Source of the DNA: Acutalibacteraceae bacterium
Lineage (GTDB): Bacteria; Bacillota; Clostridia; Oscillospirales; Acutalibacteraceae
Assembly: GCA_045648445.1 (NCBI GenBank)
Contig: JAZRNY010000043.1
Location: forward strand, 354 to 64,353
Direction: 5' to 3'
Length of the DNA stretch: 64,000 nt
Position 1 is the stretch's first letter; each line of letters opens with the position of its first letter. The translations under genes were made by a program, and so were the position numbers. The notes beneath the pieces were generated by a model. The model ran no database searches, was not told where the DNA came from, and worked only from the letters and a program-made list of their open reading frames with translations. Below are positions 3,183 through 63,754 of this stretch, in pieces.

Positions 3183-4472
3183 TTGATTAATTTGAAAATT
3201 GCAGACGTTAAAAAAGCAATTGTAGAAGGCGAATACGATAAAACCTTTGCTTATATTTATCCTGACTGTATAAAAAACGTTCGTCAGCGTTACTTAAAGG
3301 CTTGCGATAACTTTTTAAACCTATTCGGTGAACGCGAAAATATCCGTATTTTTTCTGCTCCCGGAAGAACCGAAGTTGGCGGTAACCATACCGATCATCA
3401 GCACGGAAGAGTATTAGCTGGTAGCGTAAATCTTGATGTTATTGCCATTGTTAGCGAAAATAACAGCAATATTATCAGAATTGAGTCAGAAGGTTATAAA
3501 GTTGATCCCGTTGATCTTAATGATCTTGACGCTAAAGAAAGCGAATATGGTAAAACAAGTGCTTTAATTAGAGGATGTGCCGCTACCTTTGAAAAAGAAG
3601 GATATAAAATCGGTGGATTTGATGCATTCACAACTTCCGACGTTTTAGGCGGTTCGGGACTTTCTTCATCTGCTGCTTATGAAGTAATGCTTTGTAACGT
3701 ATTAAGCGGTTTATTTAACGATTCAAAAGTCAGCAGAGTTGATATTGCAAAATTCTCTCAGCGCGCTGAACGCGAATTCTTTGGAAAGCCTTGCGGACTT
3801 CTTGACCAAATGGCAAGTTCTCAGGGTGGTTTTACAGCAATAGATTTTAACGATCCTGCTTCTCCTATCATTGAAAAAATCGATTTCGATATTGCCTCTC
3901 ACGGTTATACACTTTGCGTAATTGATACTCACGGTGACCACGCCGACCTTACGGGTGATTATGCAGACATTACCGTTGAATGTAGAGAAATCAGCCGTTT
4001 CTTTGGAAAAGATTTCTTAAGAGACGTTGACGTAAATGAGTTTTATGCTTCAATTGCTGATTTAAGAGCAAAATTCGGTGACAGAGCTGTTCTCAGAGCA
4101 ATTCACTTCTTCGCTGATGATAATAGAGCGGAAGAACAGAAAAAGGCTTTGAAACAAGATAATTTTGAACATTTTCTTGACCTTGTTAACGAATCGGGAG
4201 ATTCTTCCTATAAGTATTTACAAAACGTCTATTCCACTTCTAACGTAAAGGCGCAGGGACTTTCTCTTGCTCTTGCAATTACCGAACGCTTTTTAAACGG
4301 TGACGGCGCTTGTCGTGTTCACGGCGGTGGTTTTGCAGGAACAATTCAGTGTTATATACCAACTGATAGAATTGAAGAATACAGCAAAACAATTAATGCT
4401 GTATTTGGAGAAGGAAGCTGTTGCATATTGAATATCCGTCCTATAGGCGGTTGCGAAATTAAAGTTGATTAA
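3183..4472 (+). CDS. galactokinase-family GHMP sugar kinase
   Basis: 429 aa with a TTG start. Has the GRTEVGGNHTDHQ signature and GGSGLSSSAA GHMP ATP-binding motif. The substrate cannot be read from the sequence. Confidence 0.7.
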   Translation: MINLKIADVKKAIVEGEYDKTFAYIYPDCIKNVRQRYLKACDNFLNLFGERENIRIFSAPGRTEVGGNHTDHQHGRVLAGSVNLDVIAIVSENNSNIIRIESEGYKVDPVDLNDLDAKESEYGKTSALIRGCAATFEKEGYKIGGFDAFTTSDVLGGSGLSSSAAYEVMLCNVLSGLFNDSKVSRVDIAKFSQRAEREFFGKPCGLLDQMASSQGGFTAIDFNDPASPIIEKIDFDIASHGYTLCVIDTHGDHADLTGDYADITVECREISRFFGKDFLRDVDVNEFYASIADLRAKFGDRAVLRAIHFFADDNRAEEQKKALKQDNFEHFLDLVNESGDSSYKYLQNVYSTSNVKAQGLSLALAITERFLNGDGACRVHGGGFAGTIQCYIPTDRIEEYSKTINAVFGEGSCCILNIRPIGGCEIKVD

Positions 4473-4511: not shown

Positions 4512-5618
4512 TTAGTGCAATTTAACATCAATCCATAAATCTTCATAGTAAAAACGAATGTCTTTGTTTAAATCGTGATAGTATTCAGTTTTTGGCATTT
4601 TTTCTTCTGGTGGATATAAAATTTCATTTCCATAATAATAGTATTCAGGATTGTTAAACACTGTTTTATTAGGCGAAGCATACCCAATATATTCAGCGTT
4701 AGCAAGCGCAATATCGGGTTCCAGCAAGAAATTAATATAAAGCATAGCCGCCTCGATATTTTGACAACAAGAGGGAATGCAAGCAGCATCTACAAAAATA
4801 TTAGTACCTTCCTTAGGATAAAAGAAAGCCAAATCTTCATTAACTTCATACATAGTTAAATAATCGCCTGCGTAATACGGAGCAATAGCGGCTTCGCCGG
4901 TTTCCATTTTACCATAAACTTCATCCATTACGTAAGATTGTAGATATTGTTTTTGATCTTTTAAAAGTTGTACTGCTTTATCCCAATCGGCGATATTGTC
5001 GCTGTTTACGCTCATACCACCATAAAATTGTGCGGTCATAAATGCGTCGCGAGGATTACTGAACATCAAAGTTTGATTTTTGTATTTCTCATCCCAAAAA
5101 ACGCTCCAACTTTCCTCAACATCTTGCACCATAGAGGTGTTATATATAACACCAACCATACCTACGTTATATGGAACAGTATATTTGTTTTCAGGATCAA
5201 AATACAAATTTTTGTACTTATCGTCAATATTTTCGTAATTAGTAATTTTTGAATAATCAATCGGGAGCAACATTTCTTCTTTAATCATACGATCAATCAT
5301 ATAATCCGAAGGAATAATTATATCATAAGAAACACCCGCTGTACGCAGTTGAGAATACATAGTCTCGTTACTTTCGAAGGTCGAATAGTTAACCTTTATA
5401 CCCGTAATTCTTTCAAATTCTTTATTAACGTCAATACTTTCATCAGAACCATCAGAAATGTATTCACCCCAATTATACACGTTTAAAACTGTACCTTGAA
5501 GGTTATTAGTGTAATCCGCATTAAGATTTAACTCAAAATACTCATATCCGCAACCTGAAAAAGAAAATAATGATAAGCAAATAACAAAAATAAGAATTAA
5601 ATTAAAAACTTTTTTCAT
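4512..5618 (-). CDS. potD: spermidine/putrescine ABC transporter substrate-binding lipoprotein
   Basis: 368 aa. Signal peptide with lipobox FSGC. Lies in an operon with potABC-like genes. Confidence 0.85.
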   Translation of the reverse strand: MKKVFNLILIFVICLSLFSFSGCGYEYFELNLNADYTNNLQGTVLNVYNWGEYISDGSDESIDVNKEFERITGIKVNYSTFESNETMYSQLRTAGVSYDIIIPSDYMIDRMIKEEMLLPIDYSKITNYENIDDKYKNLYFDPENKYTVPYNVGMVGVIYNTSMVQDVEESWSVFWDEKYKNQTLMFSNPRDAFMTAQFYGGMSVNSDNIADWDKAVQLLKDQKQYLQSYVMDEVYGKMETGEAAIAPYYAGDYLTMYEVNEDLAFFYPKEGTNIFVDAACIPSCCQNIEAAMLYINFLLEPDIALANAEYIGYASPNKTVFNNPEYYYYGNEILYPPEEKMPKTEYYHDLNKDIRFYYEDLWIDVKLH

Positions 5619-7242: not shown

Positions 7243-8363
7243 TCTTCATCCTCCTCTAAATCAGAAAGATGGTCGATTTCATCACTATACGAACTATAAT
7301 CGCCGTATTTACCGGAATATTCGGATTTTTTCATAATATGAATAGCATCAGGCTCAATATAAAGTCCTACTCGTTCATTTTCCTTATGTTCATCAGTGGT
7401 TTGTATCATCCATTTAAAGCCACCGATATCTACAATTATTTCGTAATGAACGCCTAAAAATGTCACCGAAGTAACCGTACCGGTAAGCATACCTTTTTCG
7501 ATCGGAACAATATCAACGTCTTCAGGTCGAACGACAACGTCAACTTTTTCGTTTTCTTCGAAGCCTGCATCAAGGCAGGGGAATATCTGACCCGAAAATT
7601 CAGCCAAATAATCTTTTTTCATAACACCGTCAAGTATATTTGATTCACCTATAAAGTCGGCTACAAACGCATTATTAGGTTCATTATAAATATCTTTCGG
7701 AGTGCCTATTTGTTGGATTTTACCATTATCCATTACAACAACACGATCAGACATAGAGAGCGCTTCTTCTTGGTCGTGAGTTACGAAAACAAAAGTAATC
7801 CCCAGTTGCTGCTGAATTTTTTTAAGTTCGTTTTGCATATCCTTACGAAGTTTAAGGTCAAGAGCAGCAAGAGGTTCATCTAATAACAAAACTCTGGGGT
7901 TATTGGCAATAGCACGTGCAATAGCAACACGTTGTTGCTGACCGCCCGAAAGATTATGAATTTTTCTTTTTTCCATACCGCTCAAATTTACAAGTTTAAG
8001 CATTTCTTCAACTTTTTCTTTGATTTCTTTTTCGGGTAATTTTTTTATCCTTAAACCAAAAGCAACATTTTCAAAAACGTTTAAATGTGGAAAAAGTGCA
8101 TAACGCTGAAAAATAGTGTTAACTTGACGTTTGTACGCAGGAACTTCATTAATTTTATCGCCGGCAAAAATAATGTCACCCTCATCAGGGGTCAAAAAAC
8201 CGGCAATTATACGCAATGTAGTGGTTTTTCCGCAACCGGAAGGACCCAAAAGCGTAATAAATTCCTTATCGCGAATGCTTAAATTAATAGCATCGAGCAC
8301 CTTGTCGTTCTCAAATGACATCGTTATATTTTTTAGTTCAATAATATTTTCCATTTTTGCCAT
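7239..8363 (-). CDS. potA: spermidine/putrescine ABC transporter ATP-binding protein
   Basis: 374 aa. Walker [10 protein letters not shown], signature [14 protein letters not shown], Walker B LLLDEP, and a C-terminal TOBE-like domain. Confidence 0.9.
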
Positions 8364-19561: not shown

Positions 19562-19595
19562 AAAAACTCTCGTTCTTCGGAGCGAGAGTTTTTTT
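19561..19595 (+). terminator. intrinsic terminator of the tRNA operon (copy 1 of the 34-nt palindromic module)
   Basis: A6-ctctcgttc-TTCG-gagcgagag-T7. The stem is 9 bp with a UUCG tetraloop. Confidence 0.85.
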
Positions 19596-19790
19596 ATCCA
19601 TTGCGAAAGCAATGGCATATCATCACGCTTTAGCGTGTATATCATCAAAGGCGGCGTGCCGCCTTTGTATCTCATCACACCTGTAGGTGTGTATTAAAAA
19701 CACTTTCGCAATGATGATATACAAAACTTTGTTTTGATGATATGCAATTCCTTACGGAATTGATGATATACAATGCTCCGCATTGATTTC
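19596..19790. repeat. hairpin array A: 7 different mini-hairpins joined by constant linkers (4 units TGTATATCATCA-type, then 3 units TGATGATATACA-type)
   Basis: Read directly; details are in the findings. The stretch is non-coding. Confidence 0.85.
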
Positions 19791-19916: not shown

Positions 19917-21185
19917 ATGTCTAATTTTGAGGATTTGCTTCTCTGTAATCAATTGTCTGTTGAACGATTTGTGAAATTCAGGATTCCAAATGTTTCGGAT
20001 GCTGAAGATATTCTGCAAGAGGTGTTTTTAACTGCATTTAAGAGCTTTGGGCAACTTAAAACAGAAGCATCTTTCAAAGCGTGGATATTAGGTATTGCAC
20101 GACATAAGTGTAATGATTATTTTAGGGAAAAATCCAAAGATTTAGAAATATCTATCGAAGAATTAAACGAATTCGGGCTTTCGCAAACACGATTTGGATA
20201 TGTTGAGAATAATACAGTCAGCGATGTATTGGAGGGACTTGGTGATAAAGATAAACAAATTCTTTATCTATCATATTGGAAAGAGTTGCCTCAAACTGAA
20301 ATTGCCGCAAGGTTGGGCATTCCTATCGGAACTGTCAAAAGTCGCTTATATACTGCTAAACAAAATTTCAAAAGGATATATCCAACAAACACTTATATTA
20401 GAAAGGTTGATGATGTTATGAATAAACTACCAGATAGATTACCTGATTATAAAATTACACCGTTATCTAAAACACCCTTTACTGTAAAATGTGAGGAACT
20501 TCAAGGTTTGAGTATTATACCAAAACTCGGAGAAAAAACAACTTGGGGATTGTATGATTTTGAAACTAAAAAATGTGATGAGTATTCTGAGGTTAGCGTA
20601 ATAGGCAAAGCGGAGGTTCACGGTATTGAAGGTGTTGAAATAACGAGCATTCAGCACGATATAAAAAAAAATCGAAAAAACGAAAGAGTATTTGTTGCTC
20701 AATTGACAGATACACACTGTCGATATTTATCGGAAACTCATCAAGAAAACGATGTTAAAAAAACCATTACATTTCTTGATGGTGAGGTTTTTATGAACAA
20801 CTGGGGTTTTGGTGAAGATAATTGCGGAAACGAAACTGAATTAAAATCTAAAGGCATCATAAACCGCATTGGAAATAACATTACCAAAACAGGCGATAAT
20901 GAAATAATAGACATTGTAGGGTGTTTCAAAGTTGAAATAGGTAAAAAGAGTTTTGATACAGTATGTGTAATGGATTTGGGACATTTTAACAATGCGATTG
21001 CAATAGAACAGTATATTGATGAAAACGGAAGAACAATTCTTTGGCGTAGATTCAACCGTGATGATTGGGCAATAAAACGTTATAAAAAGAAATGGAGTGA
21101 ACAACTCCCCAACAACGAACAACTTATTATTAACGGAGAAACTTATGTTCATTGGTATGATTGCATAACGGACTATATATTTTAA
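19917..21185 (+). CDS. ECF-type sigma-70 family factor (regions 2 and 4) fused to a ~270-aa C-terminal domain of unknown function
   Basis: Start moved to ATG 19917 (RBS GGAGGTG 5 nt upstream). Region 2: DAEDILQEVFLTAFKSF...WILGIARHKCNDYFR. Region 4: LPQTEIAARLGIPIGTVKSRLYTAKQ. The C-terminal part has no TM segment. Confidence 0.8.
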   Translation: MSNFEDLLLCNQLSVERFVKFRIPNVSDAEDILQEVFLTAFKSFGQLKTEASFKAWILGIARHKCNDYFREKSKDLEISIEELNEFGLSQTRFGYVENNTVSDVLEGLGDKDKQILYLSYWKELPQTEIAARLGIPIGTVKSRLYTAKQNFKRIYPTNTYIRKVDDVMNKLPDRLPDYKITPLSKTPFTVKCEELQGLSIIPKLGEKTTWGLYDFETKKCDEYSEVSVIGKAEVHGIEGVEITSIQHDIKKNRKNERVFVAQLTDTHCRYLSETHQENDVKKTITFLDGEVFMNNWGFGEDNCGNETELKSKGIINRIGNNITKTGDNEIIDIVGCFKVEIGKKSFDTVCVMDLGHFNNAIAIEQYIDENGRTILWRRFNRDDWAIKRYKKKWSEQLPNNEQLIINGETYVHWYDCITDYIF

Positions 21186-52484: not shown

Positions 52485-52579
52485 TGAAGCGGGATGCAAA
52501 AAACAGACCGCAACCAATGGTTTTCGTCTAACCGGCAACTCCCCGTCCCGTCAGCACTTCACGCCTGAATTTTTACTCT
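52485..52579 (-). promoter_or_regulatory. THF (tetrahydrofolate) riboswitch
   Basis: The minus strand reads AGAGUAAAAAUUCAGGCGUGAAGUG...GGGACGGGG...CGAAAACC...GCGGUCUGUUUUUUGCAUCCCGCU. This matches the conserved AGAGUAG..GCGU.AAGUG...UUGCAUCCGCU core as I remember it from the published THF riboswitch sequence. Confidence 0.8.
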
Positions 52580-52722
52580 TCAAAATTAATTTACGAAAAT
52601 AATTATAATTACTTTATTATATTTTGTCAAGAAATATTGTTTTTGTGGCAGAAATTGCAAATTGGTCATAGTATATATTGAGTTTTAGGAAATCTAAGAC
52701 TAATATTTTAAGGAGGATTTTA

Positions 52723-58869: not shown

Positions 58870-59238
58870 TTATGTAGCACTTATATCGTTATTTTGGTTT
58901 AATCCAAAACTAACAGATAATGCCATATCCACTTCGCCCATGCTTCTCAAATCTAGCGTTCCCATTTTTTCTTTCAATCGCCTTTTATCAATCGTTCTAA
59001 CTTGTTCAAGCAATACTATTGAATCTTTAGCGAGTCCGGATGCAACCGCGTTAACCTTTATATGAGTTGGTAGTTCCGTTTTATCGTGTTGACTGGTAAT
59101 TGCAGCGGCTATTACCGTAGGACTATATCTATTTCCAACATCATTTTGAACAATCAAAACAGGTCTAATTCCGCCTTGTTCAGAACCAATAACAGGGCTT
59201 AAATCGGCATAATAAATATCTCCTCGTTTTATGGTCAT
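58870..59238 (-). CDS. mazF: MazF/PemK-family type II toxin (mRNA interferase, EndoA-like)
   Basis: 122 aa. [31 protein letters not shown] and [13 protein letters not shown]. Confidence 0.85.
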
Positions 59239-62370: not shown

Positions 62371-62715
62371 GGGGGCGTAAAGGTTTCGACAGGGACCGTG
62401 AAGTACGGGAAGCGAGCGGTGGCGTGGGACCACCTTAAAACTCACAATTTTAAAATTAAACGACAACAATAAAGTTGCTCTTGCTGCCTAATTAGGCAGC
62501 CGTCCGAACTGAGAGTACCGCGGCTCAGCCAGGGCGTCGATTAGCGGTGAACATGAACGGAAGGTCGCTCATCCTTCCGTCACGACTTTGAGCTACCAAT
62601 GATATTAGAGTGACATTTCTCGAATAACTGCGGGAAATCAAACAAATGTCTGCGCTCGGAGATGCCTGTATGAATCGATCTTTGGACAGGGGTTCGACTC
62701 CCCTCGCCTCCACCA
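62371..62715 (+). ncRNA. ssrA: transfer-messenger RNA (tmRNA)
   Basis: 5' GGGGGCGTAAAGGTTTCGACAGGG and 3' GGACAGGGGTTCGACTCCCCTCGCCTCCACCA. The tag frame ends ...N-D-N-N-K-V-A-L-A-A-stop (TAA 62489-62491). Confidence 0.95.
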
Positions 62716-62754
62716 AAAAGAAGTAACTTTTGTCTACCAAAAGTTACTTTTTTT
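62716..62754 (+). terminator. intrinsic terminator of ssrA
   Basis: aagtaactttt-gtctacc-aaaagttactt followed by T7. Confidence 0.85.
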
Positions 62755-62940
62755 ATCCAAGCCGCAGGATTGGCATATCATCACCGTGCGAAGCTCGGTG
62801 CATATCATCAGCCCCTTTGGGGCTGTATATAATCACGCGGCAGCGTGTATCATCCTGCGACTTAATGATATACCGCAACAAGTTGCGGATGATATGCAAA
62901 ACTTCGTTTTGATGATATACAACGGCAAGCCGTTGATTTG
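62755..62940. repeat. hairpin array B: same 4+3 architecture, linkers and boundaries as array A, with different hairpin sequences
   Basis: Read directly; details are in the findings. The stretch is non-coding. Confidence 0.85.
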
Positions 62941-62961
62941 TTTTCGAAAATGTAGTATAAT
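62933..62961 (+). promoter_or_regulatory. sigma-A-type promoter (TTGATT-17-TATAAT) whose -35 is the right end of array B
   Basis: Hexamers and spacing read directly, 22 nt upstream of ATG 62983. Confidence 0.6.
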
Positions 62962-62982
62962 GCGTTTGAAAGGAGTGTTTAT

Positions 62983-63159
62983 ATGGCAAAAAATTACTTG
63001 TTGACCTATGCAGAACAACTTGCAACTGATGTCGAATTGCTTTGTCAAAACATAAAAGCACCGTCCAACACTCTTTTCCAAATTCGCAAAAGTTCCAGTA
63101 GCGTTTATGCCAATATTCGTGAAGCCAATTACGGACAAAGTAAAGTTGTAAAACACTAA
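62983..63159 (+). pseudogene. truncated four-helix-bundle protein (23S rRNA-IVS / Avd-like family), 58 codons versus ~120 expected
   Basis: My own translation gives MAKNYLLTYAEQLATDVELLCQNIKAPSNTLFQIRKSSSSVYANIREANYGQSKVVKH*. The motif R.S.S...NI.EA....SK is typical of the family, and the protein stops right after it. RBS AAAGGAG. Below the ORF-track cutoff. Confidence 0.5.
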
Positions 63160-63172
63160 AGGAGAATGCAAA

Positions 63173-63496
63173 ATGAAGAACAAGCCAATTGTTATCGGGA
63201 TTATAGCTGTTGCTTCTCCAATACCACTGGTGATTTTTACCGCAATATGGAGTTGGATATGGTTTTTCGGCATAGGTATGGGATTACTAAACTACGATAC
63301 TGTTCCTCAATGGATACTTGTTGTTTCGTTGCTACCTTTATTTATTAGTCCAATTTTTGGTTTGATGGGCATAATTCATAGTATGGTAAATATCAAAACA
63401 AAAAAAGCCTGGTTTGCATTCTTTTTGTCCGTAATAGGATTGCTTGAAAATTTCATCTTGATTTACGGAATGTATTATCTCGGAAGTAGATTTTAA
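63173..63496 (+). CDS. small hypothetical membrane protein (107 aa, 3-4 TM helices)
   Basis: RBS AAAGGAGAA. Strongly hydrophobic segments. Followed by a terminator. Confidence 0.6.
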   Translation: MKNKPIVIGIIAVASPIPLVIFTAIWSWIWFFGIGMGLLNYDTVPQWILVVSLLPLFISPIFGLMGIIHSMVNIKTKKAWFAFFLSVIGLLENFILIYGMYYLGSRF

Positions 63497-63564
63497 GTCG
63501 CACACTACTTTTGGTCGTTTTTACCCCTACTTACGCTACTTTTAGTCGCTCTTCCACCAACATA

Positions 63565-63600
63565 AAGTCCCTTTTTGTCTTTGAAAAAAGGGACTTTTTT
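63565..63600 (+). terminator. intrinsic terminator
   Basis: aagtcccttttt-(8 nt)-aaaaagggactt followed by a T-run. Confidence 0.8.
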
Positions 63601-63722
63601 GAGTGATGCATTCCTTCGGAACGTGATGCGCACTTTGTACGTAATGTTGACCTTTGTCCGTGATGCAAACCTGCGGCGCGTGGTAAGTACGCTTTTCGGC
63701 CTTTGCTTCTTCCGAAGAAGGA
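63601..63722. repeat. degenerate ~20-nt periodic array (GTGATGCA-type constant segment plus short variable palindrome), 5 units
   Basis: GTGATGCA at 63603, GTGATGCG at 63623, GTAATGTTGA at 63641, GTGATGCA at 63660, GTGGTAAGTA at 63680. Ends with the hairpin cttctt-ccg-aagaag. Confidence 0.55.
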
Positions 63723-63754
63723 ATGGAAATGGAGTGGTATTCCTTTTCTCCTAC

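Follow-up and report, generated by a model that had tools for sequence, protein, structure and literature searches.

A mini-hairpin and linker array behind the tmRNA gene of an Acutalibacteraceae bacterium: a possible recognition array of PF05635 cassettes

What is the role of a row of tiny hairpins which are separated by conserved linkers and sit directly behind the gene for transfer-messenger RNA (tmRNA)? This question is raised by array B, located behind ssrA in a 64,000-nt stretch of contig JAZRNY010000043.1 (the window) from an Acutalibacteraceae bacterium. Comparison of array B with its relatives in other genomes led us to a tentative answer: the array may be the cis recognition array of a cassette that carries a PF05635/TIGR02436 gene and occupies the 3′ flanks of tRNA and tmRNA genes, and its linkers may be read by an oligomer of the PF05635 protein.

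Array B spans positions 62755-62939, directly 3′ of the ssrA terminator (Table 1). Its left half reads AT, CCAAGCCGCAGGATTGG, (GG)CATATCATCA, CCGTGCGAAGCTCGG, TGCATATCATCA, GCCCCTTTGGGGC, TGTATATAATCA, CGCGGCAGCG, TGTATC and ATCCTGCGACTT, and its right half (T)AATGATATACC, GCAACAAGTTGC, GGATGATATGCA, AAACTTCGTTT, TGATGATATACA, ACGGCAAGCCGT and TGATTT (62934-62939). This layout bears out the original prediction of four forward and three reverse units with short hairpins between them. The left junction (T7 followed by ATCCA) and the right end (TGATGATATACA, hairpin, TGATTT) are indeed common to array B and to array A, another copy in the window, and a single hairpin with an aaaac/gtttt stem is shared between the two arrays, all as proposed. 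The linkers had also been called identical; the boundaries are the same as in array A, but the third forward linker (F3, TGTATATAATCA) and the first reverse linker (R1, TAATGATATACC) deviate from the consensus. Nor are all hairpins perfectly paired, since h1 has two unpaired bases and h2 a T-T mismatch. The centre between the two blocks is no plain filler but pairs with h1: positions 62852-62863 are the reverse complement (12 nt, 92%) of positions 62759-62770, which comprise the 5′ arm and the loop of h1. Neither this helix nor the link to a PF05635 gene described below had been noted before. The −35 box of the promoter behind array B is the truncated last linker. Allowing up to two mismatches, the linker TGATGATATRCA is found 40 times in the window compared to 13.9 ± 3.4 times in shuffles, and all six exact matches lie inside arrays A and B. 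Fold z-scores against shuffles (RNAfold) are −4.9 for array B and −6.9 for array A.

Table 1 Coordinates of the module behind ssrA and of the other copies in the window
Feature	Position	Strand	Remarks
ssrA (tmRNA) gene	62371..62715	+	Ends ...TCCACCA; ARAGORN; Rfam RF00023, 152 bits
Bidirectional intrinsic terminator	62716..62754	.	A-run, 12-bp stem, loop TCTAC, T7; 'TTTTGTCTACC-loop' type; first part of the module
Left junction AT and hairpin h1	62755..62773	+	CCAAGCC-GCA-GGATTGG, imperfect
Forward block	62774..62851	+	Linkers CATATCATCA, TGCATATCATCA, TGTATATAATCA, truncated TGTATC; hairpin loops h2 GAA, h3 TTT, h4 GGCA
Centre ATCCTGCGACTT	62852..62863	+	3′ strand of the long-range helix closing the forward block
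Reverse block	62863..62939	+	Linkers TAATGATATACC, GGATGATATGCA, TGATGATATACA, truncated TGATTT; hairpins h5-h7 with loops AA/CAAG, TTC, CAAG (G..A-type when read on the minus strand)
Outward sigma-70-type promoter TTGATT-17-TATAAT	62933..62961	+	10/12 matches; followed by ribosome-binding site AAAGGAG
Truncated PF05635/TIGR02436 open reading frame (ORF), 58 aa	62983..63159	+	Four-helix-bundle, Avd/S23p-like; starts 61 nt past the last linker
Second insertion gene, small predicted membrane ORF, 107 aa	63173..63496	+	No Pfam match
Insertion right end	63508..63559	+	Direct repeats CTTTTGGTCG, CTTTTAGTCG (2x CTTTTRGTCG), then TCCACCA 63553-63559
Array A module	19562..19789	+	Terminator 19562-19595, array 19596-19789, after tRNA-Arg(tct); solo, without PF05635 gene
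Array C module	63560..63700	+	Terminator C ~63564-63600, then degenerate one-orientation array; older resident

Related arrays were collected by an exact-pattern scan of one genome per species, which yielded at least 119 loci (these and further loci are cited here by L numbers); the counts given below are among the matches listed. Nearly all loci belong to Acutalibacteraceae, Oscillospiraceae or metagenome-assembled genomes named 'Clostridia' from ruminant and other guts. Arrays with the linker of array B are here called type 1. They belong to a wider family linked to TIGR02436/PF05635 genes, defined by the CCA end of a tRNA or tmRNA gene, a bidirectional terminator, two opposed blocks of a short motif with mini-hairpins, the helix between h1 and centre that closes the first block, and the gene; array B fits this description. 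A module runs from the CCA end of the RNA gene through an A-run, the terminator stem-loop, a T-run, ATCCA, h1 and three to four units of linker plus hairpin to a truncated linker, the centre, three to four reverse units and TGAT(T). The forward block always precedes the reverse block, typically with 3+3 units. The right end reads TTGAT in 47 of 85 modules, and 28 of those 47 show a −10-like hexamer 16-18 nt beyond.

The proposed association with the 3′ ends of stable RNA genes is supported by this census. A complete tRNA or tmRNA gene (14 tRNA identities and tmRNA) ends 25-36 nt before the T-run in 42 of the 85 full modules, and in 24 others the complete tRNA is missing but '...CCA + A-run' is present (tRNA 3′ fragments, missed tmRNAs and the ends of preceding cassettes). 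The remainder is made up by '...CA(C) + A-run' (9/85), by modules with a locus edge upstream (8/85) and by other upstream contexts (2/85). The array starts 50-65 nt past the tRNA or tmRNA 3′ end in 43 cases, and the arrays lie on the 3′ side of the nearest tRNA at all loci but two. The terminator type found behind ssrA in the window is present behind Ser, Tyr, Val, Trp, Gly and Arg tRNAs in other genomes; across loci, tRNAs and species the same types of terminator and of h1 and the same hairpin units come back in new combinations. One common terminator, cgacAAGtttcgaCTTgtcg, also exists as cgacTTGtttcgaCAAgtcg, with its arms swapped at two base pairs and the same loop (L045, L079 vs. L022, L041, L097), and thus the terminators too show compensatory change.

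Tandem duplications of units and one-orientation arrays occur as well (L107, L059, L091). Expanded one-orientation arrays reach at least 13 units (L107 1-385; L059 900-1029; L091 589-761; L121 2084-2284) and are built from tandem higher-order blocks, each with two or three types of hairpin; such a build suggests slippage at the linkers, or unequal exchange there, as their origin. Linker families of other sequence but the same grammar (among them AATGATG/CATCATT, GATATATC, ATTTCATA, ATTTCAC, GATTCCATACA) were seen in the same species or in neighbouring genomes, namely after ssrA (L001, L002, L005, L007, L010) and at L052 ~7640-7700, L011 ~4600-4800 and L051 2420-2520; some of these arrays directly adjoin a type-1 array. 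At L099 a DUF3800-XI RNA (RF02975, 54 bits, 3870-3917) lies ~190 nt downstream of a type-1 array.

The commonest gene directly behind type-1 arrays encodes a PF05635 protein. In 19 modules the next ORF starts 57-62 nt past the last linker, and eight of these ORFs are PF05635 genes, the other 11 encoding unrelated proteins. The 58-aa ORF behind array B matches Pfam PF05635 with E=7.8e-4, which is below the gathering cut-off because the ORF is truncated; it corresponds to the N-terminal half of the full-length L064 protein, to which it is 89% identical over 54 aa, and its full-length relatives score 75-97 bits on TIGR02436. A tblastn search of the array loci revealed 16 PF05635 homologues, 12 of which start 59-61 nt past a type-1 array. 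The four others are divergent (37-60% identity), and these also lie behind a tRNA, a terminator and two opposed repeat blocks, which are composed of other motifs: GTATGTAATC/GATTACATAC, where hairpins are present, and TTCACT/AGTGAAT and ATTCATT/ATGAATA, where they are largely missing. The array with the GATTACATAC motif is that of L119, and an array with the motif GTGATAT is that of L167.

A second sample was drawn from the protein side, by a metagenome search with the protein alignment (570 relatives, 80 kept), and counters the ascertainment bias of the array scan. A 7-mer present at least twice in each orientation was found upstream of 34 of 49 non-redundant PF05635 regions, compared to 4 of 108 control ORFs. 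Most protein-first loci with enough upstream DNA have a co-oriented tRNA 3′ end 220-305 nt before the ATG, and the same architecture recurs, with a bidirectional terminator, h1 paired to the centre, two blocks and mini-hairpins. The motifs in these loci (GTGATAT, GTGAAAT, TGAAATC, TGAAATA, AATGATG, AATGAAG, GTGAAGT, ATGATAC) differ between families, and the block order is reversed relative to type 1 in most of them. Indeed, the repeat motif tracks the protein tree in clade order: a common motif was shared by 41 of 51 protein pairs with at least 75% identity, by 32 of 183 pairs with 55-75%, by 10 of 287 pairs with 45-55% and by a single pair out of 299 below 45%. Motif and protein stay coupled in this way even though the remaining parts (terminators, h1 types, hairpin units, other genes downstream) are freely reshuffled. 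Distant phage-borne PF05635 homologues have short tandem repeats upstream, and a few viral contigs carry PF05635 genes and arrays at tRNA genes.

Selection on structure, as originally proposed, is well supported by the hairpins between the linkers. A segment between two linkers was counted as a hairpin if it pairs from its ends for at least 3 bp. Hairpins account for 84% of 508 such segments (273 distinct), compared to 2.5% of shuffles, and near-neighbour hairpins differ by 57 compensatory double changes of one pair against 27 single stem changes, loop changes being the most frequent (116). The notion of conserved linkers with covarying stems needs one qualification: hairpin units are shuffled between positions and copies and do not simply covary in place. 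Of 208 hairpins, 174 are closed by a C-G pair. Where the linker reads TGTATATCATCA, that strand has loops of the G..A kind in 94 cases and of the T..C kind in five. GNA triloops (GAA, GCA, GTA, GGA) dominate over GNNA tetraloops, giving the forms c(GNA)g and c(GNNA)g. A c(GNA)g hairpin with a C-G closing pair is a classic, very stable DNA mini-hairpin (PMC3201870). The same asymmetry is found in unrelated linker families, with 18 G..A vs. 1 T..C loops in TCA-type blocks and 0 vs. 20 in TGA-type blocks. These strand-specific loops imply that each block is optimised on a different strand. GNYA tetraloops are as frequent as GNRA tetraloops, which fits the stability rule for DNA tetraloops better than that for RNA. 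Furthermore, the hairpins vary in length from 7 to 23 nt between fixed linkers, with a centre-to-centre spacing of the linkers of 19-35 bp, which favours a folded single strand over phased sites in duplex DNA.

A second conserved pairing joins the first bases of h1 to the 10 nt preceding the first reverse linker. All 10 positions are complementary in 53 of 84 modules and at least nine of them in 73 of 84, and this helix exists in at least six sequence types that covary. No covariation links the forward to the reverse linkers: a C-T mismatch is present in 21 of 55 modules and the matching C-G pair in one of 55. According to this, the linkers behave as sequence motifs, and the foldback of the whole array predicted by RNAfold was ruled out as the selected feature. 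Position-specific linker variants that would mismatch in such a foldback are kept as well (R2 ...ATGCA, F3 ...ATCTCATCA). One-orientation arrays raised the idea of an invertible segment bounded by the inverted repeat of h1 and centre; this is unlikely in view of at least six inverted-repeat types in one family.

These observations can be joined in one model. The module comprises a bidirectional terminator right after the CCA end and opposed blocks of a short motif, here TGTATATCATCA and TGATGATATRCA, with its copies between very stable mini-hairpins, the first block being closed by the long-range helix, and usually an outward promoter and ribosome-binding site. The signature gene of the proposed cassette would be that for the PF05635/TIGR02436 four-helix-bundle protein, a relative of the DGR accessory protein Avd and of the 'S23p' ORFs found in 23S rRNA intervening sequences. 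The linkers would serve as recognition sites for a PF05635 oligomer, supplied in cis or, for decayed (array B) and solo (array A) copies, in trans. They would be read while the region is single-stranded, either as unwound DNA or as transcript, and a hairpin of any length would then set neighbouring linkers at a fixed distance in the single strand. The loop rules favour DNA as this strand; an argument for RNA is that some families have no promoter between the array and the gene. The complex might serve to autoregulate the cassette or to insulate it from its very active neighbour, the RNA gene, and/or to insert and exchange cassettes at CCA ends. We infer binding of the linkers by PF05635 proteins because the coupling survives reassortment, because the position of the gene is fixed and because the Avd family offers a precedent. 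Avd forms a pentameric barrel; a stem-loop RNA touches all five protomers, and its flipped-out bases sit in the crevices between them (bioRxiv 10.1101/2023.10.23.563531). The closest solved relative, 2RLD, has five chains.

Several findings weigh against this reading. A PF05635 gene adjoins only about 10-14% (~1/8) of the type-1 arrays, and the gene behind array A encodes an extracytoplasmic function (ECF) sigma factor. PF05635 ORFs are often truncated (58 aa in the window, 58 aa in L026, 85 aa in L050), so that arrays persist without an intact neighbouring gene. The co-variation of motif and protein clade is also expected from plain linkage and co-inheritance, and we know of no demonstration of sequence-specific binding by a PF05635 protein. 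The type-1 promoter lies downstream of the array and thus places it outside the mRNA leader; the reversed block order in other families means that no single transcript orientation accounts for the strand asymmetry. Since linkage alone could give the co-variation, and since only about one array in eight adjoins the gene, we assign the recognition array reading a probability of roughly 0.45.

The fact that most arrays lack a PF05635 gene would be accounted for if they were a selfish mosaic of the kind known as repetitive extragenic palindromic (REP) sequences, bacterial interspersed mosaic elements (BIMEs) and REPINs, spread and reshuffled next to terminators by an enzyme whose substrate is single-stranded DNA and whose gene, one per genome, is not linked to them (of RAYT/Y1 HUH type or similar), with PF05635 as merely the commonest passenger. 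Strand-specific DNA-type mini-hairpins fit this explanation, as do the reassortment of terminators, h1 types and units, the tandem unit duplications and one-orientation arrays, the extragenic site behind terminators, the high copy number and the presence of several linker families per species; REP and BIME elements have the same general lifestyle (PMC6006769). REPs, however, keep their palindrome and vary its flanks, and the arrays do the opposite. An IS200 TnpA probe found no Y1 transposase in the window and ~230 loci (best E=0.34), and clustering of ORFs within ±4 kb of at least 119 arrays revealed no recurrent recombinase, transposase, reverse transcriptase or other enzyme gene, though a distant single gene would escape both searches. 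Such a mosaic also leaves unexplained why PF05635 genes keep their position at +59-61 nt and why motif and clade track each other, with the other passengers swapped. We regard a mosaic with a passenger gene as unlikely, though far from negligible.

Less probable still is a structured RNA that acts by itself, derived from tRNA or tmRNA read-through or from an opposite-strand transcript and serving as a small RNA or as an element for processing, stability or insulation (e.g. an RNase target or exonuclease block). The fold z-scores, the compensatory hairpin changes and the covarying helix between h1 and centre would all suit an RNA; the bidirectional terminator could end a leftward transcript, several other families leave almost no room for a promoter between array and ATG (L169, L188), and transcription followed by RNase III cleavage is known for the S23p intervening sequences (PMC4990558). 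Yet the array sits past a strong terminator and, in type 1, ahead of a promoter, and no promoter-like site is present inside the arrays. The dominance of triloops and the equal frequency of GNYA and GNRA loops are unusual for selected RNA hairpins, and the two blocks are optimised on opposite strands. Rfam contains no family that matches the array at the gathering threshold; the best matches at E<=10 are noise of 10-14 bits, and a search of 19 related loci gave only tmRNA and DUF3800-XI matches outside the arrays.

The locus at ssrA itself shows how a module is placed. Ten contigs with identical SmpB are 98-99.5% identical to the window over smpB-ssrA and differ fully from it from position 62716 on, the first base past the CCA. 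This is in line with the claim of strain-variable DNA at ssrA. The claim that the array marks a border between core and non-core DNA needs a correction: the insertion site is exactly at the CCA end, but the array is the leading end of the variable DNA and not a marker between the two. Behind ssrA some of the conspecific contigs carry arrays with AATGATG/CATCATT or GATATATC-type linkers, and two (L003, L004) an unrelated island. Window positions 63543-63745 align with the DNA directly after ssrA in L002, L010 and L005; the aligned stretch holds TCCACCA, a terminator with the loop TTTTGTCT and a degenerate array with GTGATGC linkers. Thus, an 837-bp insertion (62716-63552) lies between the tmRNA end and an older module. 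It consists of a terminator, array B, a promoter, the 58-aa ORF, the 107-aa membrane ORF and a right end, the motif of which is also present in L122 and L145. The TCCACCA that follows is a 7-nt repeat of the tmRNA 3′ end. At other loci cassettes follow each other in series, with right ends of the type TTGCTATTTTAAGCTGTAAACAC and of a third type without a tRNA-end repeat; right ends of cassettes read ...GTCGCTCTT or ...GCTGTAAACAC. Immediately before the next A-run terminator, conserved right ends read TTGCTATTTTRAGCTGTAAACAC, GGTTTTCAGGCACATTTCATTCGTGTCATTAAGTTCAAAC(T/A)(A/C)CCCA or, as in the window, 2x CTTTTRGTCG (L043, L052, L065, L070, L096; also L080, L084). No autonomous parent element, in which a gene would lie between the two blocks, was found.

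Partial copies of tRNA 3′ halves (T-arm, acceptor strand, CCA) lie just before the module at L049, L092, L033, L087, L089 and L095, with the intact tRNA 150-350 nt further upstream, which resembles the aftermath of integrase-type insertion. The near-identical viral contigs L227 and L228 differ by a deletion that takes the terminator and most of the first repeat block, with breakpoints in similar hairpins (cgtgc...gcacg).

An insertion at this precision may also call to mind an attachment site, the array being its arm region, with arm-type sites for a tyrosine integrase and accessory proteins that insert small non-autonomous islands at tRNA and tmRNA 3′ ends. Insertion exactly at the CCA end, the 7-nt tmRNA-end repeat at the far side, the two direct repeats at the right end, the displaced tRNA 3′ fragments before some modules, the cassettes in series and the different island at the same ssrA end in L003 and L004 all point in this direction. 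Against it, the module is found behind at least 14 tRNA identities whose 3′ ends have only CCA in common, no integrase lies within about 4 kb of any array, cassettes with the TTGCTATTTTAAGCTGTAAACAC right end lack a tRNA-end repeat, and arm sites bound as duplex would need no strand-specific hairpins. An arm region is therefore very improbable. A classical integrase att island was ruled out, as the repeat comprises only 7 nt (usually at least 15 nt) and is absent with the other right-end type, and no integrase is near the arrays. Hardly any credence is due to the idea that an unrelated regulator or a nucleoid protein binds the array as duplex DNA, making it an operator or insulator that shields the downstream promoter from the very active RNA gene. 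This idea would agree with the location of the array, flanked by the terminator and by a promoter that uses the last truncated linker as its −35 box, and with the conserved position-specific linker variants (R2, F3). It has no role for hairpins or strand asymmetry, the centre-to-centre spacing varies from 19 to 35 bp, and a promoter is recognisable in only ~1/3 of modules.

Returning to the recognition array reading, a bolder extension may be considered, which we find rather unlikely: PF05635/S23p proteins would, together with their hairpin-linker arrays, be selfish nucleoprotein elements of a class so far unrecognised, which home to the genes of stable RNAs, with CCA ends of tRNA and tmRNA as targets here and 23S rRNA helices as targets in the classical intervening sequences. 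The oligomer would read the multivalent single-stranded array and recruit host machinery for insertion, for which a reverse transcriptase (as with Avd) that fuses the 5′ end of the element to the tRNA 3′ end by template switching, or an enzyme acting on single-stranded DNA, could be envisaged. If true, this would give standalone Avd-like proteins their first function and explain the origin of the rRNA intervening sequences. Should the elements be mobile, they would represent a new way of targeting RNA genes. Independently of this, the PF05635 proteins gain a testable partner, an array whose motif changes with the protein clade in a niche right behind CCA ends. To our knowledge PF05635/TIGR02436 genes, which are common and often multi-copy, have had no known function outside diversity-generating retroelements (DGRs) in the roughly 35 years that have passed since the description of the rRNA intervening sequences. 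The arrays are also an abundant unannotated class of intergenic DNA in gut and rumen Clostridia, which marks strain-variable cassettes and supplies terminators and promoters, and they will confuse assembly as well as predictions of repeats and small RNAs. With their strand-specific c(GNA)g mini-hairpins, the arrays lend themselves to the study of how cells make use of transient structure in single-stranded DNA or RNA.

The other copies in the window add some detail. Array A ends in TTGATT and is followed by the ECF sigma-factor gene (19917-21185), which encodes Sigma70_r2/r4 and a C-terminal extension of ~270 aa without Pfam match. A ClpC-based search for other alleles of this locus found the exact protein not to be on record. 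The linkers of array C are of the GTGATGC type, GTGATGCA, CGTGATGC and TAATGTTGA; its terminator has the same loop, TTTTGTCT, as the module at 62716, and it is preceded by the tmRNA-end copy TCCACCA (63553-63559). The other tRNA units of the window (His-Gln and Pro) carry no array. A tetrahydrofolate (THF) riboswitch (RF01831, 81.7 bits) is located at 52485-52582 (−). An ORF for a PemK/MazF-type toxin (58870-59238, −) lies between engB and an amino-acid ATP-binding cassette (ABC) transporter operon, upstream of smpB, and is kept in the conspecific contigs.

A phage origin was considered as well: the pattern was matched by 16 viral contigs, but these are mostly unrelated low-complexity repeats. 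The phage contig L130 (8640-8800; also L135, L137) has a five-unit one-orientation TGATGATATGCA array followed by TTGATTT and a terminator, with a primase/helicase module on one side and the genes for the small and the large terminase just downstream. Packaging sites (pac/cos) usually sit beside terminase genes, as this array does.

How do the arrays compare with known systems? Full-text literature searches with the linker strings returned only unrelated PCR primers, no description of such arrays was found, and the literature on PF05635, S23p and Avd that we retrieved deals with DGRs and intervening sequences only. A CRISPR array, which has direct repeats of 23-47 nt in a single orientation and unique, non-palindromic spacers of about the same length, was ruled out, since the 12-nt repeats stand in two opposed blocks, the 'spacers' are hairpins of 7-23 nt from a recurring pool and no cas-like cluster was found. 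Box C/D or k-turn motifs (UGAUGA), Fur, NrdR and IHF boxes, DnaA-trios, and Chi- or DNA-uptake-sequence-like sites were also considered and dropped because sequence or polarity did not fit.

Like REP, BIME and REPIN elements, the arrays are extragenic, multi-copy and clustered, lie behind transcription units near terminators and are mosaics of hairpins and short linkers in opposed orientations; those elements, too, are thought to act as single-stranded DNA hairpins. A REP unit, however, consists of a conserved palindrome (~20-40 nt) and a flanking tetranucleotide, whereas the arrays keep a non-palindromic 12-nt linker and vary the hairpin. Their stems measure a mere 3-8 bp and carry c(GNA)g loops, and the arrays are strictly tied to the CCA ends of tRNA and tmRNA genes and coupled to PF05635. 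A REP system has a cognate RAYT (Y1 HUH) gene, typically with REPs on its flanks; the IS200 TnpA probe revealed no such gene in the window or in the loci.

The S23p intervening sequences of 23S rRNA in Coxiella, Leptospira and Salmonella resemble the array cassettes in their small and often decaying ORF for a PF05635 four-helix bundle, in their sporadic, apparently selfish insertion in or at a stable-RNA gene and in complementary repeats that can form a stable structure; they are viewed as selfish, their ORFs decay and no function is known for them (PMC4990558). They lie within helix 25 or 45 of the 23S rRNA, and their terminal inverted repeats enclose the ORF. The array cassette, in contrast, is placed after the CCA of tRNA or tmRNA, has both blocks upstream of the ORF and carries multi-copy motifs between hairpins. 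In DGRs, the homologous Avd, a pentameric barrel of four-helix bundles, binds a structured nucleic acid that is encoded beside its gene (bioRxiv 10.1101/2023.10.23.563531), as we infer for the array and its protein. ORF clustering within ±4 kb of the arrays showed no recurrent reverse transcriptase gene, and no pair of template and variable repeats was seen there, without a search dedicated to either; the nucleic-acid partner would be a repeat array adjoining tRNA genes.

Integron attC sites share with the arrays the precedence of structure over sequence, a strand-specific folded single strand, serial variable genes separated by a structured element and the newest insertion nearest to the fixed site. 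They differ in that the arrays have no R/L core boxes (GTTRRRY) and no intI nearby, that the array lies upstream of the gene, that the array cassette has its own terminator and promoter and that many small hairpins take the place of one imperfect hairpin with extrahelical bases, which in integrons lies downstream of the cassette ORF. A purely functional analogy is provided by TRAP and HutP, oligomeric proteins that read several copies of a short single-stranded motif, arranged in two clusters in the case of HutP; these proteins are unrelated to PF05635, and their motifs comprise 3 nt in one orientation in an mRNA leader. Taken together, the arrays combine two known kinds of element, interspersed palindromic mosaics and S23p elements, and there is a real chance that they represent a wholly new kind.

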